The position numbers and the translations under genes were made by a program. 64,000 nt of DNA from the NCBI RefSeq assembly GCF_041248615.1, contig NZ_CP158426.1. One strand, 5' to 3'. Below the pieces are notes generated by a model, which was not told where the DNA came from, did not search any database, and saw nothing but the letters and a program-made list of their open reading frames with translations. Origin of the DNA: Escherichia coli. GTDB lineage: Bacteria; Pseudomonadota; Gammaproteobacteria; Enterobacterales; Enterobacteriaceae. Of this stretch, positions 39,643-51,926 are shown in pieces. The first letter of the stretch is position 1. Each line of letters starts with the position of its first letter.

Positions 39643-40379
39643 TGTTTTTTGGACTCCCTCATTATAATTACTGGTATTAACCAGCATGTGTAATCCCGGA
39701 TTGGGACCCTGCACAGGCTCGGAGACTTTCTGCTGTCAGGTTACTTTATCGTTACGTATTACTATCACCGACTTTATTTATTCTGGTGATTCAGACGATC
39801 ACCTTATGTCGATTCGTACTGTGTCTCCCCTGTCGAGACACATTATTCTTTCGCGACGCTCTTTAATTGTTAATTATTCTCATTACCAATAAAGAATCGT
39901 CTGGCGGTTGCCCGAAAAGTACCAAATGCGGTTCTTACTCGCCAATACATTTTGCAAAATTGTTAAGCAATTCTCTTTTATTGACCGTATCAGAATCTAT
40001 AGCTTGCATCCATGTCTTAACAAACATCTTTTAATTCAATTAAATAGAGATTGGTTAAGCATGTCTCTCTTTTCTGATTACAGTTCCAGTAGTGAAATGC
40101 ACAATAATTTAACAATTGATTATTATTTAGCACTTTCCTCTACCAAAGGCAGTGGAATTACTAATATCATTTCAATTATTCTTCAGCAAGCCCAGGATTA
40201 TGATGTGGCGAAAATAACATGATGGTGAGGAGAAGCAGTTAAGGAAATCCTTATAACCAACTGTAATTTGAGAAGAATATTTTCACCCATTCCTTTTGCT
40301 TTTGATAACTGCGCGGGAACAAAGTAAAAATAATGACGAAGTAAACGGAGCATGACAGCTCCGTTTCATTTGAAAGGAA

Positions 40380-41503: not shown

Positions 41504-44179
41504 ATGGCTGTTACTAATGTCGCTGAACTTAACGCACTCGTAGAGCGTGTAAAAAAAGCCCAGCGTGAATATGCCAGTTTCACTCAAGAGCAAGTAGACA
41601 AAATCTTCCGCGCCGCCGCTCTGGCTGCTGCAGATGCTCGAATCCCACTCGCGAAAATGGCCGTTGCCGAATCCGGCATGGGTATCGTCGAAGATAAAGT
41701 GATCAAAAACCACTTTGCTTCTGAATATATCTACAACGCCTATAAAGATGAAAAAACCTGTGGTGTTCTGTCTGAAGACGACACTTTTGGTACCATCACT
41801 ATCGCTGAACCAATCGGTATTATTTGCGGTATCGTTCCGACCACTAACCCGACTTCAACTGCTATCTTCAAATCGCTGATCAGCCTGAAGACCCGTAACG
41901 CCATTATCTTCTCCCCGCACCCGCGTGCAAAAGATGCAACCAACAAAGCAGCTGATATCGTTCTGCAGGCTGCTATCGCTGCCGGTGCTCCGAAAGATCT
42001 GATCGGCTGGATCGATCAACCTTCTGTTGAACTGTCTAACGCACTGATGCACCACCCAGACATCAACCTGATCCTCGCGACTGGTGGTCCGGGCATGGTT
42101 AAAGCCGCATACAGCTCCGGTAAACCAGCTATCGGCGTAGGCGCGGGCAACACTCCAGTTGTTATCGATGAAACTGCTGATATCAAACGTGCAGTTGCAT
42201 CTGTACTGATGTCCAAAACCTTCGACAACGGCGTAATCTGTGCTTCTGAACAGTCTGTTGTTGTTGTTGACTCTGTTTATGACGCAGTACGTGAACGTTT
42301 CGCAACCCACGGCGGCTATCTGTTGCAGGGTAAAGAGCTGAAAGCTGTTCAGGACGTTATCCTGAAAAACGGTGCGCTGAACGCGGCTATCGTTGGTCAG
42401 CCAGCCTATAAAATTGCTGAACTGGCAGGCTTCTCTGTACCAGAAAACACCAAGATTCTGATCGGTGAAGTGACCGTTGTTGATGAAAGCGAACCGTTCG
42501 CACATGAAAAACTGTCCCCGACTCTGGCAATGTACCGCGCTAAAGATTTCGAAGACGCGGTAGAAAAAGCAGAGAAACTGGTTGCTATGGGCGGTATCGG
42601 TCATACCTCTTGCCTGTACACTGACCAGGATAACCAACCGGCTCGCGTTTCTTACTTCGGTCAGAAAATGAAAACGGCTCGTATCCTGATTAACACCCCG
42701 GCTTCTCAGGGTGGTATCGGTGACCTGTATAACTTCAAACTCGCACCTTCCCTGACTCTGGGTTGTGGTTCCTGGGGTGGTAACTCCATCTCTGAAAACG
42801 TTGGTCCGAAACACCTGATCAACAAGAAAACCGTTGCTAAGCGAGCTGAAAACATGTTGTGGCACAAACTTCCGAAATCTATCTACTTCCGCCGTGGCTC
42901 CCTGCCAATCGCGCTGGATGAAGTGATTACTGATGGCCACAAACGTGCGCTCATCGTGACTGACCGCTTCCTGTTCAACAATGGTTATGCTGATCAGATC
43001 ACTTCCGTACTGAAAGCAGCAGGCGTTGAAACTGAAGTCTTCTTCGAAGTAGAAGCTGACCCGACCCTGAGCATCGTTCGTAAAGGTGCAGAACTGGCAA
43101 ACTCCTTCAAACCAGACGTGATTATCGCGCTGGGTGGTGGTTCCCCGATGGACGCCGCGAAGATCATGTGGGTTATGTACGAACATCCGGAAACTCACTT
43201 CGAAGAGCTGGCGCTGCGCTTTATGGATATCCGTAAACGTATCTACAAGTTCCCGAAAATGGGCGTGAAAGCGAAAATGATCGCTGTCACCACCACTTCT
43301 GGTACAGGTTCTGAAGTCACTCCGTTTGCGGTTGTAACTGACGACGCTACTGGTCAGAAATATCCGCTGGCAGACTATGCGCTGACCCCGGATATGGCGA
43401 TTGTCGATGCCAACCTGGTTATGGACATGCCGAAGTCCCTGTGTGCTTTCGGTGGTCTGGACGCAGTAACTCACGCCATGGAAGCTTATGTTTCTGTACT
43501 GGCATCTGAGTTCTCTGATGGTCAGGCTCTGCAGGCGCTGAAACTGCTGAAAGAATATCTGCCAGCGTCCTACCACGAAGGATCTAAAAATCCGGTAGCG
43601 CGTGAACGTGTTCACAGTGCAGCAACTATCGCGGGTATCGCGTTTGCGAACGCCTTCCTGGGTGTATGTCACTCAATGGCGCACAAACTGGGTTCCCAGT
43701 TCCATATTCCGCACGGTCTGGCAAACGCCCTGCTGATTTGTAACGTTATTCGCTACAACGCGAACGACAACCCGACCAAGCAGACTGCATTCAGCCAGTA
43801 TGACCGTCCGCAAGCTCGCCGTCGTTATGCTGAAATTGCTGACCACCTGGGTCTGAGCGCACCGGGCGACCGTACTGCTGCTAAGATCGAGAAACTGCTG
43901 GCATGGCTGGAAACGCTGAAAGCTGAACTGGGTATTCCGAAATCTATCCGTGAAGCTGGCGTTCAGGAAGCAGACTTCCTGGCGAATGTGGATAAACTGT
44001 CTGAAGATGCATTCGATGACCAGTGCACCGGCGCTAACCCGCGTTACCCGCTGATCTCCGAGCTGAAACAGATTCTGCTGGATACCTACTACGGTCGTGA
44101 TTATGTAGAAGGTGAAACTGCAGCGAAAAAGGAAGCCGCTCCGGCTAAAGCTGAGAAAAAAGCGAAGAAATCCGCTTAA
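41504..44179 (+). CDS. adhE: Bifunctional aldehyde/alcohol dehydrogenase AdhE
   Basis: 891-aa [57 protein letters not shown]...; ALDH and iron-ADH domains. Confidence 0.97.
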
Positions 44180-44202
44180 TCAGTAGCGCTGTCTGGCAAC
44201 AT

Positions 44203-44234
44203 AAACGGTCCCTTCTGGGGCCGTTTTTTTGTTT
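44203..44234 (+). terminator. Intrinsic terminator after adhE
   Basis: Hairpin AACGGTCCC-TTCT-GGGGCCGTT followed by TTTTTTTGTTTT. Confidence 0.75.
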
Positions 44235-44481
44235 TACCCAAAGCAACTTTCCCATAAACCGACAGCATTTGCCTTCATCATATTTACGGCGATGTATAAC
44301 GCCTACACACAGCGATATTGTACTTTACAGGTCACAAGTCAACGTCACTGTAAAAGCGCTCTGTGAGGGGTATAGTGGCGTTAAAGAACTGTCGAGAAGG
44401 GTATATACACCGGATGAAGTGAGTAAAACGAACTGACAGGATAAAAGCGCCCTGCTCACCCTGTCAGTAAAGAAATTCTTA

Positions 44482-45099
44482 TTAATCGTGGCGATGCCTT
44501 TCCTGAATAGCCGTTAATGAGCCGACTTCTAACGCTTCTTTATAGTGTTTACGGCATACAGAAACGTAGCGTTCATTACCACCAATAACCACCTGCTCAC
44601 CTTCGTTATAAGGTCTGCCTGCTTGATCAAGACGCAGCACCATGCTTGCTTTGCGGCCACAAAAACAGATGGTTTTTAATTCAACCAGTTTGTCGGACCA
44701 TGCCAGTAAGTATTGGCTGCCAATAAATAACTCACCTCGAAAATCGGTACGTAAACCATAACAAAGTACGGGTATATCGAGTTGATCGACAACCTCCGAT
44801 AATTCATATACTTGTTGTCTGGTTAAAAACTGGCATTCATCAACCAGTACGCAATGAATTGCCTGCTGTTCATGTTCCGCACGAATCTCATCAAATAATG
44901 ATGAATTTTGGTTAAATAATTTTGCAGGCGATGACAAACCTATACGCGAACTGACTTTCCCGGCACCAAAGCGATCGTCAATTTCTGCCGTATATACGAC
45001 AGTGCGCATGCCGCGTTCCTGGTAATTGTATGAAGATTGCAACAATGCTGTAGACTTACCCGCATTCATTGCGGAATAGTAGAAATATAGCTGTGCCAT
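44482..45099 (-). CDS. tdk: Thymidine kinase
   Basis: 205-aa [24 protein letters not shown]... (P-loop) with C-terminal zinc-binding cysteines. Confidence 0.95.
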
Positions 45100-45702
45100 C
45101 AGCCACAGGCCCTCAATGATATGAAATAAAGTTGGCTGGAGTTTATCATAATTCGTCAGTTTTTCAGCTCAACAGTATGCACAGAAGTGGTATATGCGTT
45201 CTCCCTTACGAAGCCTTGCATAATCCTTCTGAGCTATCATTACAACTGCCTCGCTTGTTATAAGCGGGTAAATGACTGCTGGTAACTATTCACAATCTTT
45301 AACCTGTTGCGCAAGTAATAGCCCTCTGTTGACCTCCAGGAGATAGTGCAATACTAAGTCCCTGCTCTTATTGCGACTGTTCTACTTTTCATCATTCGCT
45401 TAATAGGGAATTCTCGTAAACACGACTAATACAGAAGACTGAAAGGTCGTCAGCCTACGATAATCTCCCCATAAAATGTGACATGAATCAGGAAGTTTTA
45501 ACCTCACGTGCTGCGAAATCATCGGCGCAAATAGGGCTATATGCCGCGTCTTTTCTGGCTAATTTTATGAAAAGATATTTATTGGCGGCACAAAATAAAG
45601 AACAATTTTGAATTCCTTACATTCCTGGCTATTGCACAACTGAATTTAAGGCTCTATTATTACCTCAACAAACCACCCCAATATAAGTTTGAGATTACTA
45701 CA

Positions 45703-46116
45703 ATGAGCGAAGCACTTAAAATTCTGAACAACATCCGTACTCTTCGTGCGCAGGCAAGAGAATGTACACTTGAAACGCTGGAAGAAATGCTGGAAAAATT
45801 AGAAGTTGTTGTTAACGAACGTCGCGAAGAAGAAAGCGCGGCTGCTGCTGAAGTTGAAGAGCGCACTCGTAAACTGCAGCAATATCGCGAAATGCTGATC
45901 GCTGACGGTATTGACCCGAACGAACTGCTGAATAGCCTTGCTGCCGTTAAATCTGGCACCAAAGCTAAACGTGCTCAGCGTCCGGCAAAATATAGCTACG
46001 TTGACGAAAACGGCGAAACTAAAACCTGGACTGGCCAGGGCCGTACTCCAGCTGTAATCAAAAAAGCAATGGATGAGCAAGGTAAATCCCTCGACGATTT
46101 CCTGATCAAGCAATAA
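45703..46116 (+). CDS. hns: Nucleoid-associated protein H-NS
   Basis: 137-aa [44 protein letters not shown]...TWTGQGRTP. Confidence 0.97.
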
Positions 46117-46140
46117 TCTTTTGTAGATTGCACTTGCTTA

Positions 46141-46169
46141 AAAATCCCGCCATCGGCGGGATTTTTTAT
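46141..46169 (+). terminator. Intrinsic terminator after hns
   Basis: Hairpin AAATCCCGCC-ATC-GGCGGGATTT followed by TTTTTATT. Confidence 0.8.
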
Positions 46170-46204
46170 TGTCCGGTTTAAGACAATTTAATAAGAATAA
46201 GCTA

Positions 46205-46236
46205 TAAAAAAACGGCGTCGATTGCTCAACGCCGTT
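46205..46236 (-). terminator. Intrinsic terminator after galU
   Basis: Hairpin AACGGCGT-(12 nt loop)-ACGCCGTT followed by a T-run on the minus strand. Confidence 0.7.
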
Positions 46237-46260
46237 TCGTGGATAACACCGATACGGATG

Positions 46261-47169
46261 TTACTTCTTAATGCCCATCTCTTCTTCAAGCCAGGCTTTA
46301 AATTCCGTACCAAGGGTGTTATGACGAATACCGTATTCAACGAAGGCCTGCATGTAACCTAATTTATTACCACAGTCATGGCTCTTCCCTTTCATATGAT
46401 AGGCTTCCACCGTTTCTTTTTCGATCAGCATATCAATTGCGTCGGTGAGCTGAATTTCATCACCAGCTCCCGGAGGGGTTTTTGCCAGCAACGGCCAAAT
46501 ATCCGCGCTAAGTACGTAACGACCCACAATAGCGAGATTAGACGGCGCAACATCCGCTTTTGGTTTTTCAACCACGCCAACCATAGGTACGCTTTCACCC
46601 GGCGCTAATTCAACGCCTTTGCAATCCACAACGCCATATGCGGTCACATCAGCAACCGGTTCAACCATGATCTGGCTATGACCCGTTTCATCAAAGCGGC
46701 GGATCATCTCTGCCAGGTTATCCTGTGACAAATCGGATTCATATTCATCCAGAATAACGTCAGGCAAAATAACAGCCACAGGTTCATCACCCACTACCGG
46801 GTGAGCACACAATACCGCATGTCCCAGGCCTTTCGCCAGCCCCTGACGAACTTGCATAATAGTCACGTGCGGCGGACAAATAGACTGCACTTCATCAAGC
46901 AGTTGACGTTTTACACGTTTTTCCAGCATTGCTTCCAGTTCAAAACTGGTATCAAAGTGGTTTTCAATAGAGTTTTTAGATGAGTGAGTAACCAGCACAA
47001 TTTCAGTAATGCCAGCCGCAATACATTCATTCACGACGTATTGAATTAATGGCTTATCGACAAGTGGCAGCATCTCTTTCGGGATGGCTTTCGTCGCCGG
47101 CAACATCCTGGTTCCTAATCCCGCAACGGGGATAACGGCTTTTTTGACTTTCGTATTAATGGCAGCCAT
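46261..47169 (-). CDS. galU: UTP--glucose-1-phosphate uridylyltransferase
   Basis: 302-aa ORF with N-terminal nucleotidyltransferase motif ([26 protein letters not shown]). Confidence 0.96.
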
Positions 47170-51207: not shown

Positions 51208-51742
51208 TCACTTTCAAAAGTCCCTGAACTCTCAAACGAATCCGTAATTAAATATTCTGCCCAAGCGGGGAAGGATGAGAAGCTTCGACCAAGGTTCGAC
51301 TTGAGCGCCAGCGAGAGAGCGTGGCCGCAGGCAACGACCCGAAGGGCGAAGCGCGCAGCGCTGAGTAATCCTTCCCCCACCACCATAACTTTCAAAAGCC
51401 CCGGAATTCTCAAACGAATCCGCAATCAAATATTCTGCCCATGCGGGGAAGGATGAGAAGCTTCAACCAAGGTTCGACTTGAGCGCCAGCGAGAGAGCGT
51501 TGCCGCAGGCAACGACCCGAAGGGCGAAGCGCGCAGCGCTGAGTAATCCTTCTCCCACCACCATCACTTTTCAAAAGTCCGTGAACTCTCAAACGAATCC
51601 GCAATTAAATATTCTGCCCATGCGGGGAAGGATGAGAAGCTTCGACCAAGGTGCGACTCGAGCGCCAGCGAGAAAGCGTTGCCGCAGGCAACGACCCGAA
51701 GGGTGAAGCGCGCAGCGCTGAGTAATCCTTCCCCCACCACCA
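51208..51742 (+). repeat. Three tandem 178-bp repeat units distal to tyrV (rtT / tpr region)
   Basis: Units at about 51208..51385, 51386..51563 and 51564..51742, each ending in the tRNA-Tyr 3' terminal sequence AATCCTTCCCCCACCACCA; contains a protamine-like basic ORF. Confidence 0.9.
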
Positions 51743-51807
51743 TCACTTCCTGTAAATACTCAAAACCTGTTACTCCGAGCTAATTCTACCCAATGGCACC
51801 GCGTTTA

Positions 51808-51861
51808 CCGGACCTACAATATCCTCCCCTGTAGGTCGGATAAGCGAAGCGCATCCGACAA
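51808..51861. repeat. REP-like palindromic element
   Basis: CGGACCTACA...TGTAGGTCGGATAAGCGAAGCGCATCCGACA inverted-repeat structure typical of enterobacterial REP units. Confidence 0.5.
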
Positions 51862-51882
51862 CTCACCCCGTACCGTGCCCAT

Positions 51883-51906
51883 AAAAAAACCCCGCCGAAG
51901 CGGGGT
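51883..51906 (-). terminator. Intrinsic terminator after narI
   Basis: Hairpin CCCCGC-CGAA-GCGGGG followed by a T-run on the minus strand. Confidence 0.75.
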
Positions 51907-51926
51907 CTATGCAAACTAAAATTCGC

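Follow-up and report, generated by a model that had tools for sequence, protein, structure and literature searches.

The 603 bp that separate tdk from hns in Escherichia coli are very probably a shared, non-coding control region for these two divergent core genes, with a promoter at each end and a regulatory spacer between. At the right end, transcription of hns begins at position 45667, from a σ70 promoter, and passes through a 36-nt leader. Published experiments show that the DNA upstream of that promoter is the seat of activation by Fis, of autorepression by H-NS and of induction by CspA in the cold. At the left end, conservation points to a probable promoter of tdk, small and of the extended −10 type. 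Between the promoters, some 450 bp of spacer drift freely in sequence from genus to genus, the length of the interval being held near 550 bp, and an island within the spacer might serve hns control as a protein-binding, DNA-shaping site, for which a Fis-type 15-mer fits best. The hns–tdk divergent promoter region is already known; indeed, it has been studied more closely than most promoter regions of E. coli. What we add is a base-level map of constraint over the interval across a bacterial family, a likely promoter for tdk, and a candidate site in the DNA before hns, more distinct in Klebsiella, Enterobacter and Kluyvera than it is in E. coli itself. The level of H-NS determines how far foreign DNA and virulence genes are silenced, so an extra conserved input to the hns promoter would be of modest specialist interest. 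Coordinates are collected in Table 1.

Table 1. Features of the tdk–hns interval and its flanking genes. Positions are those of the window; negative distances are counted from the hns transcription start (TSS).
Feature	Coordinates	Strand	Basis and remarks
tdk, thymidine kinase, 205 aa, ATG start	44482–45099	−	ORF list; annotated in KE55 and K-12; left boundary
tdk extended −10 promoter, predicted	45140–45148 (TG 45148–45147, TAAACT 45145→45140)	−	Cross-genus conservation
Poorly conserved tdk-side segment, largely Escherichia-specific	45190–45275		Alignment gap in 35–83% of other genera
Central island, E. coli copy; consensus TAATACaAAAGGtTGATATTTATCCa	45427–45452 (centre about −223)		Alignments and position matrix
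Weak CRP-like match TGTGACATGAATCAGG, candidate	45477–45492 (centre −183)		Two mismatches to the consensus
AT-rich hns upstream region	45556–45600 (−111 to −67)		Partly conserved blocks AAATTTAAGTTA / TTAAT / AAA-TAA
Highly conserved block ATTTTGAATTCCTTACATTC	45605–45624 (−62 to −43)	+	70–90% or more column identity across genera
hns σ70 core promoter	−35 TTGCAC 45632–45637, 17-bp spacer, −10 TATTAT 45655–45660	+	PMC7601328 description; promoter scan
hns TSS, A 45667, and 36-nt 5′ leader	45667–45702	+	TSS-seq table, Kim et al. 2012
hns, 137 aa	45703–46116	+	ORF list; annotated in KE55 and K-12; right boundary

With tdk, on the minus strand, reaching up to 45099 and hns starting at 45703, the gap between the two ORFs spans 45100–45702, exactly 603 bp. 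A first-pass annotation had described it as an AT-rich, unusually long stretch of about 600 bp, and so it is, albeit modestly on the first count and locally on the second. Its GC content is 40.1%, against 49.5% for the window—by which we mean the whole 64,000-nt stretch of DNA that was analysed—and a value as low is seen in only 4.1% of 603-bp windows. The tdk gene has a GC content of 42.9%, and a 2026 paper gives 59% AT for 1400 bp that comprise tdk and the 700 bp preceding it. By the annotation of strain KE55 only one intergenic gap in the 64 kb exceeds the interval in length, and among the ten or so divergent pairs none does. That one, of 737 bp, lies between oppA and ychE (39643–40379), and the micro-protein gene ychT is annotated just past ychE. 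The A/T tracts that the same annotation remarked upon are also present, nine of them if homopolymer runs of at least four are counted, but not in numbers above chance: shuffled sequence yields 6.7 ± 2.4, and 25% of 603-bp windows across the whole window carry as many. They are clustered, rather, in the 150 bp that adjoin hns (45550–45702), where GC falls to 32% and five of the nine are found.

The interval belongs to the core genome. In KE55 it is 100% identical and the genes are arranged in the same way; of 5426 complete E. coli genomes, 5422 have it, and in 5323 E. coli records identity is at least 99%. Neither the KE55 annotation nor the curated annotation of K-12 MG1655 places any feature between tdk and hns, and none is annotated there among the roughly 60 E. 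coli records listed. On the far side of tdk, K-12 MG1655 has an ISZ/insZ pseudogene element between tdk and adhE (L001, 3427–4406), whereas in the window and in KE55 these genes are only 302 bp apart (44180–44481). Elsewhere in the window, the KE55 annotation places four tandem RtT sRNA copies (51254–51919) after two tRNA-Tyr genes. Beyond E. coli, the 80 closest Enterobacteriaceae loci of other species were collected with Tdk as bait, and in all 78 of those that extend far enough hns lies divergently upstream of tdk.

The hns promoter can be placed to the base. In the published description (PMC7601328) the spacer measures 17 bp, the bases at −13 and −8 are C and A, C also occupies −4, −3 and −1, and, downstream of the start, +2, +3 and +6 are A, C and A; only TTGCAC-17-TATTAT with its start at A 45667 fits. 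In the TSS-seq table of Kim et al. (2012) the hns UTR is 36 nt long and the flanking sequence stops at 45667; no other start within the interval is listed there. The GC-rich discriminator renders this promoter sensitive to (p)ppGpp. Across the family this is the most strongly preserved part of the region: CTATTGCA...CTCTATTATTA and the hns leader are nearly invariant among 78 aligned sequences, and conservation in a profile of 69 aligned sequences is 0.8–0.99 at 45610–45702. Directly upstream of the −35 hexamer stands the block ATTTTGAATTCCTTACATTC, which might be an UP-like element or an activator site.

Farther upstream, constraint weakens without vanishing. Fainter conserved blocks extend over the AT-rich DNA from about −106 to −67, and some register at 45560–45610 in the conservation profile. 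Predicted curvature peaks at 45559 (−108), at 10.3 degrees per turn by a wedge model; this is above the 99th percentile of the window, although not among its 12 highest peaks. By the same model, mean curvature is unremarkable, at 4.2 degrees per turn for the interval versus 3.7. Nearby, at 45581–45585 (about −84), the sequence reads ATTGG, the complement of CCAAT; a CCAAT box has reportedly been proposed for the action of CspA at hns. Outside E. coli the pentamer is not kept, the site reading ATTGC in E. albertii and being unrelated in other genera.

Much is known of how hns is controlled. In the literature (including PMC7601328) Fis is an activator of hns transcription and H-NS a repressor of its own gene, while CspA induces the gene and (p)ppGpp inhibits it, and the 'hns promoter' constructs in this literature reach to −313 or span +12 to −540. 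Those ends fall at about 45354 and about 45127, so that together the constructs cover most or all of the interval. In genomic SELEX, the σ70 holoenzyme of RNA polymerase binds the hns–tdk spacer. Shimada et al., by genomic SELEX in vitro, did not flag the spacer as a site for H-NS, although stpA–alaE was flagged. The best-match promoter hexamers that they list here, ATGAAA-17-TATCAT and TTACCA-17-TATAAC, lie in unconserved DNA; neither is the mapped hns promoter, and we discount them. In Salmonella LT2, tdk and hns (STM1750/STM1751) both appear as differentially transcribed in the RNA-seq table for a Δfis strain, with values of 1.48 and 1.71 (PMC3662779, Table S5); the Fis ChIP-seq table of the same study includes neither gene. 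That the two Δfis values have the same sign hints that tdk and hns may share an input.

The first-pass annotation took the interval to be, in all likelihood, an autoregulatory region bound by H-NS and Fis. Control by these two proteins is supported by published biochemistry and genetics; the sequence by itself does not prove it. Two further qualifications apply: the probable promoter of tdk shares the interval, and the AT-rich, tract-bearing part of it is only the 150 bp nearest to hns.

The probable promoter of tdk was found through its conservation. In the orientation of tdk, one element recurs among 79 Enterobacteriaceae sequences, and it is the sole conserved element of the last 140 bp: TATGnTAcAAT, preserved at 70–90% or more some 40 bp before the tdk ATG. 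In E. coli it reads ATGATAAACT, and conservation over 45140–45149 is 0.75 in the profile of 69 aligned sequences. The same 79 sequences have no conserved −35 hexamer. If this element is the promoter, transcription of tdk would start near 45133 and the leader would be about 34 nt long; the table of Kim et al. (2012) does not include a start for tdk. The promoter scanner proposed a different arrangement, TTGAGC-16-TATGAT, which we abandoned in favor of a register shifted by 5 bp, the conserved TGnTAAACT.

The two promoters are separated by about 450 bp in which conservation is low, approximately 0.1–0.4 in the profile of 69 aligned sequences, with one exception. At 45420–45445 it rises to 0.56–0.65, and when the alignments are examined an island of 26 bp comes into view. 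Its consensus is conserved in about 60 Enterobacteriaceae species (among loci L003–L082), some 267–281 bp upstream of the hns ATG, with an information content of 1–2 bits per position versus about 0.1 in the flanks. In E. coli the island is degenerate. Its copy there departs from consensus at nine of the 26 positions, keeping TAATAC..AAG..TGA and having lost the right half, and the same degeneration is seen in E. albertii and in two divergent Escherichia; in four other loci (L070, L073, L066 and L055) the island is absent or displaced. Since it is the E. coli copy that was footprinted, and this copy has decayed, the island may have escaped notice.

To which of the two genes does the island belong? 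The distance from its center to the hns −35 hexamer falls into two narrow classes, 177–180 bp in 23 genomes and 186–193 bp in 41, that differ by about one helical turn; the distance from the island to the tdk −10 element, on the other hand, is spread over 222–403 bp. The two tight groups on one side and the wide spread on the other argue that the island goes with hns and keeps to a single face of the helix. It might be an uncharacterized architectural binding site—for Fis, for nucleation of H-NS, or for some other factor—that organizes the DNA upstream of hns, the gene of the master silencer, and thereby contributes to its control across the Enterobacteriaceae, a suggestion that we make tentatively and rate below an even chance. 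That it is a functional site, hitherto undescribed as such, is likewise a possibility rather than a probability.

Which protein might bind there was explored with consensus sequences for Fis, IHF, FNR, CRP and H-NS. The Fis 15-mer is degenerate, with G at −7, C at +7 and an AT-rich center; the consensus for IHF is WATCAANNNNTTR; and the high-affinity nucleation motif of H-NS is reportedly TCGATAAATT. Strict forms of the Fis, IHF, FNR and H-NS high-affinity motifs have no matches in the E. coli interval. Allowing one mismatch, the Fis 15-mer occurs once, at 45309–45323, which is no more than chance would supply. The island consensus outside E. coli, GGTTGATATTTATCC, nevertheless fits the Fis 15-mer at every position: G at −7 is invariant (100%), C at +7 has a frequency of 86%, and there is agreement at the Y, R, AT-center, Y and R positions too. 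The island is, moreover, in helical phase with the hns promoter, as a Fis upstream activating region would be; such phasing is typical of upstream Fis sites. H-NS is the other candidate of note. Eight of the ten positions of its nucleation motif match the island consensus. In the E. coli interval no match to this motif occurs at two mismatches or fewer, and when up to three are allowed the count rises to 11, where 5.2 would be expected in 603 bp, an excess of only about 2-fold, with clusters at −106 to −86, −48, −19, and −205 to −194.

Other readings of the island fit less well. An IHF-like sequence, TATCAACCTTTTG, is present on the minus strand in many genera, but its TT is only 56–64% conserved while the positions that IHF leaves free (N) are 84–100% conserved; the E. 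coli island has three mismatches to the IHF consensus, and the E. coli interval has no IHF match at one mismatch or fewer. A dyad of the FNR/CRP type, TTGAT-N4-ATCAA, fails because C is conserved (86%) where A is needed and because the dyad is only 4 bp; its N4 is itself 84–100% conserved, and E. coli has no such dyad at two mismatches or fewer. A DnaA box was considered and rejected, given which positions are conserved. Comparison of these positions with all of the candidate motifs makes a Fis-type site, or a composite site for Fis and H-NS, our best guess. Separate from the island is the weak CRP-like match listed in Table 1, the TGTGAC of which is kept only in Escherichia, Citrobacter and Salmonella.

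The island might be read differently, as a promoter in its own right, TTGATA-15-TATAAT on the plus strand (CTGAAA...GATAAT in E. coli), that gives rise to a second hns transcript, with a long leader, or to an unannotated sRNA. TATAAT does often occur seven bases after the island in other species, perfectly so in Enterobacter, Klebsiella/Raoultella, Phytobacter and others, and E. coli has GATAAT at 45459–45464. The spacer would be just 15 bp, however, and no −35 hexamer fits at 16–17 bp; in Salmonella and Citrobacter the −10 hexamer is without the key A2 or T6 (TATTTC, TATTTG); the DNA downstream is unconserved; and the sole start that TSS-seq places in the E. coli interval is that of hns. Nor does the region look like an sRNA gene, with no terminator on the plus strand, no Rfam match, and a folding z-score no better than −2.3 in 14 windows. 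At the island itself an RNA hairpin would have only the 4-bp dyad to build upon, with no covariation of pairs. A promoter here is very improbable, we think, and a protein-binding site that serves hns remains our preferred reading of the island.

Could the spacer around it be filler in evolutionary terms, or what remains of a gene or mobile element since lost, its length a mere accident? Most of 45175–45600 is unconserved, and Escherichia and Citrobacter carry 50–90 bp extra on the tdk side; ORFs that cross the largely Escherichia-specific segment at 45190–45275 are broken even in E. albertii. Relatives accommodate larger additions still. In Phytobacter ursingii (L025) the gap is 1750 bp and contains, between the central island and hns, an ORF of 326 aa for an IS5-family transposase, which implies that in at least one species the region tolerates large insertions. 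Gaps of 879–914 bp occur in Kluyvera, Pseudocitrobacter and one Citrobacter (L029, L035, L042, L047, L050 and L053 in Kluyvera and relatives; L027 and L007); there, about 350 bp are extra, on the tdk side, and the long gaps have no ORF in common. Two Klebsiella, at 673 and 712 bp, are outliers also. Against filler, the length is otherwise tight—the median is 554 bp, and 68 of the 79 Enterobacteriaceae sequences measure 489–646 bp—despite the turnover of sequence, and the distance from island to hns promoter is kept to two helical registers. There is no similarity to true plasmids, and a search of the interval for direct, inverted and tandem repeats found just short two-copy pairs of the kind that arise by chance. 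The full-length matches in the plasmid collection are near-identical copies of the chromosomal interval; the 20 plasmid-labelled matches are all non-mobilizable, several of them in Mb-sized records. They are not mobile DNA, and a mobile-element origin was rejected. We regard filler as very improbable, and the spacer of a control region, maintained for its length, as the better account.

The interval is non-coding and without structured RNA, a conclusion that several lines of evidence support. Nine ORFs of 20–43 aa can be drawn within it if ATG, GTG and TTG starts are allowed, but in a six-frame test none of the nine, all of at least 20 aa, is kept outside E. coli. Eight are intact in no more than two of 68 other genomes, with stops and frameshifts already in E. 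albertii and divergent Escherichia. The ninth (45565–45639, minus strand) is intact in 22 of the 68, but it lies across the nearly invariant promoter of hns and is broken in Salmonella. A longer ORF of 100 aa (45660–45962, minus strand) lies opposite the beginning of hns, in antisense, and extends into the promoter; it is without support and appears to be a call of the spurious type. Such spurious antisense ORFs had been noted in the first-pass annotation, which held that no coding feature is supported here. Conservation of ORFs, Rfam, folding, terminators and annotation, all of them negative, bear this out; neither a conserved small ORF nor an sRNA was found. A small protein, encoded for example by 45132–45263 (plus strand), 45400–45522 (minus) or 45483–45611 (plus), is therefore scarcely credible, for although annotation often misses small proteins and these ORFs do exist, the curated K-12 record that is silent here annotates micro-proteins such as YchT nearby.

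The searches for RNA can be reported briefly. Rfam models, searched against 44000–46400 at E ≤ 10, have no match within the interval. The nearest matches, all sub-threshold, overlie the hns terminator. One of them, to frnS, at 46141–46242 on the minus strand, scores 28 bits (E = 0.04), where the gathering score is 60; it covers the terminator hairpin of hns, between hns and galU, and is probably due to chance. A terminator scan found no candidate on the plus strand of the interval and only weak ones on the minus strand, two of which lie on the start of tdk. Folding z-scores for 14 windows of 150 nt, taken from both strands, range from +0.18 to −2.26; the best of these is not significant for 14 tests, and it falls in DNA that is not conserved.

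How does this region compare with others that have been described? On the hns side there is no difference in kind. The promoter is the Phns of Falconi et al. (1993, 1996), Ueguchi et al. (1993) and La Teana et al. (1991), as cited in PMC4390576 and PMC7601328; the locus is the same, and the −35, −10, discriminator and start reported here match the published description base for base. The putative tdk promoter resembles extended −10 (TGn) σ70 promoters in having a conserved TG, one base before the −10 hexamer, but no conserved −35; it differs in that the E. coli hexamer, TAAACT, matches at only four of six positions, whereas other genera have TACAAT. The closest parallels for the regulatory arrangement are rrnB P1, cspA and virF, growth-phase promoters with upstream activating regions that Fis activates and H-NS represses. 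Like them, hns has AT-rich DNA upstream, is subject to antagonism between Fis and H-NS, is sensitive to ppGpp, and has an island in phase with its promoter. Unlike them, it has this island unusually far upstream, at about −223, and in E. coli it is without strict matches to the Fis motif.
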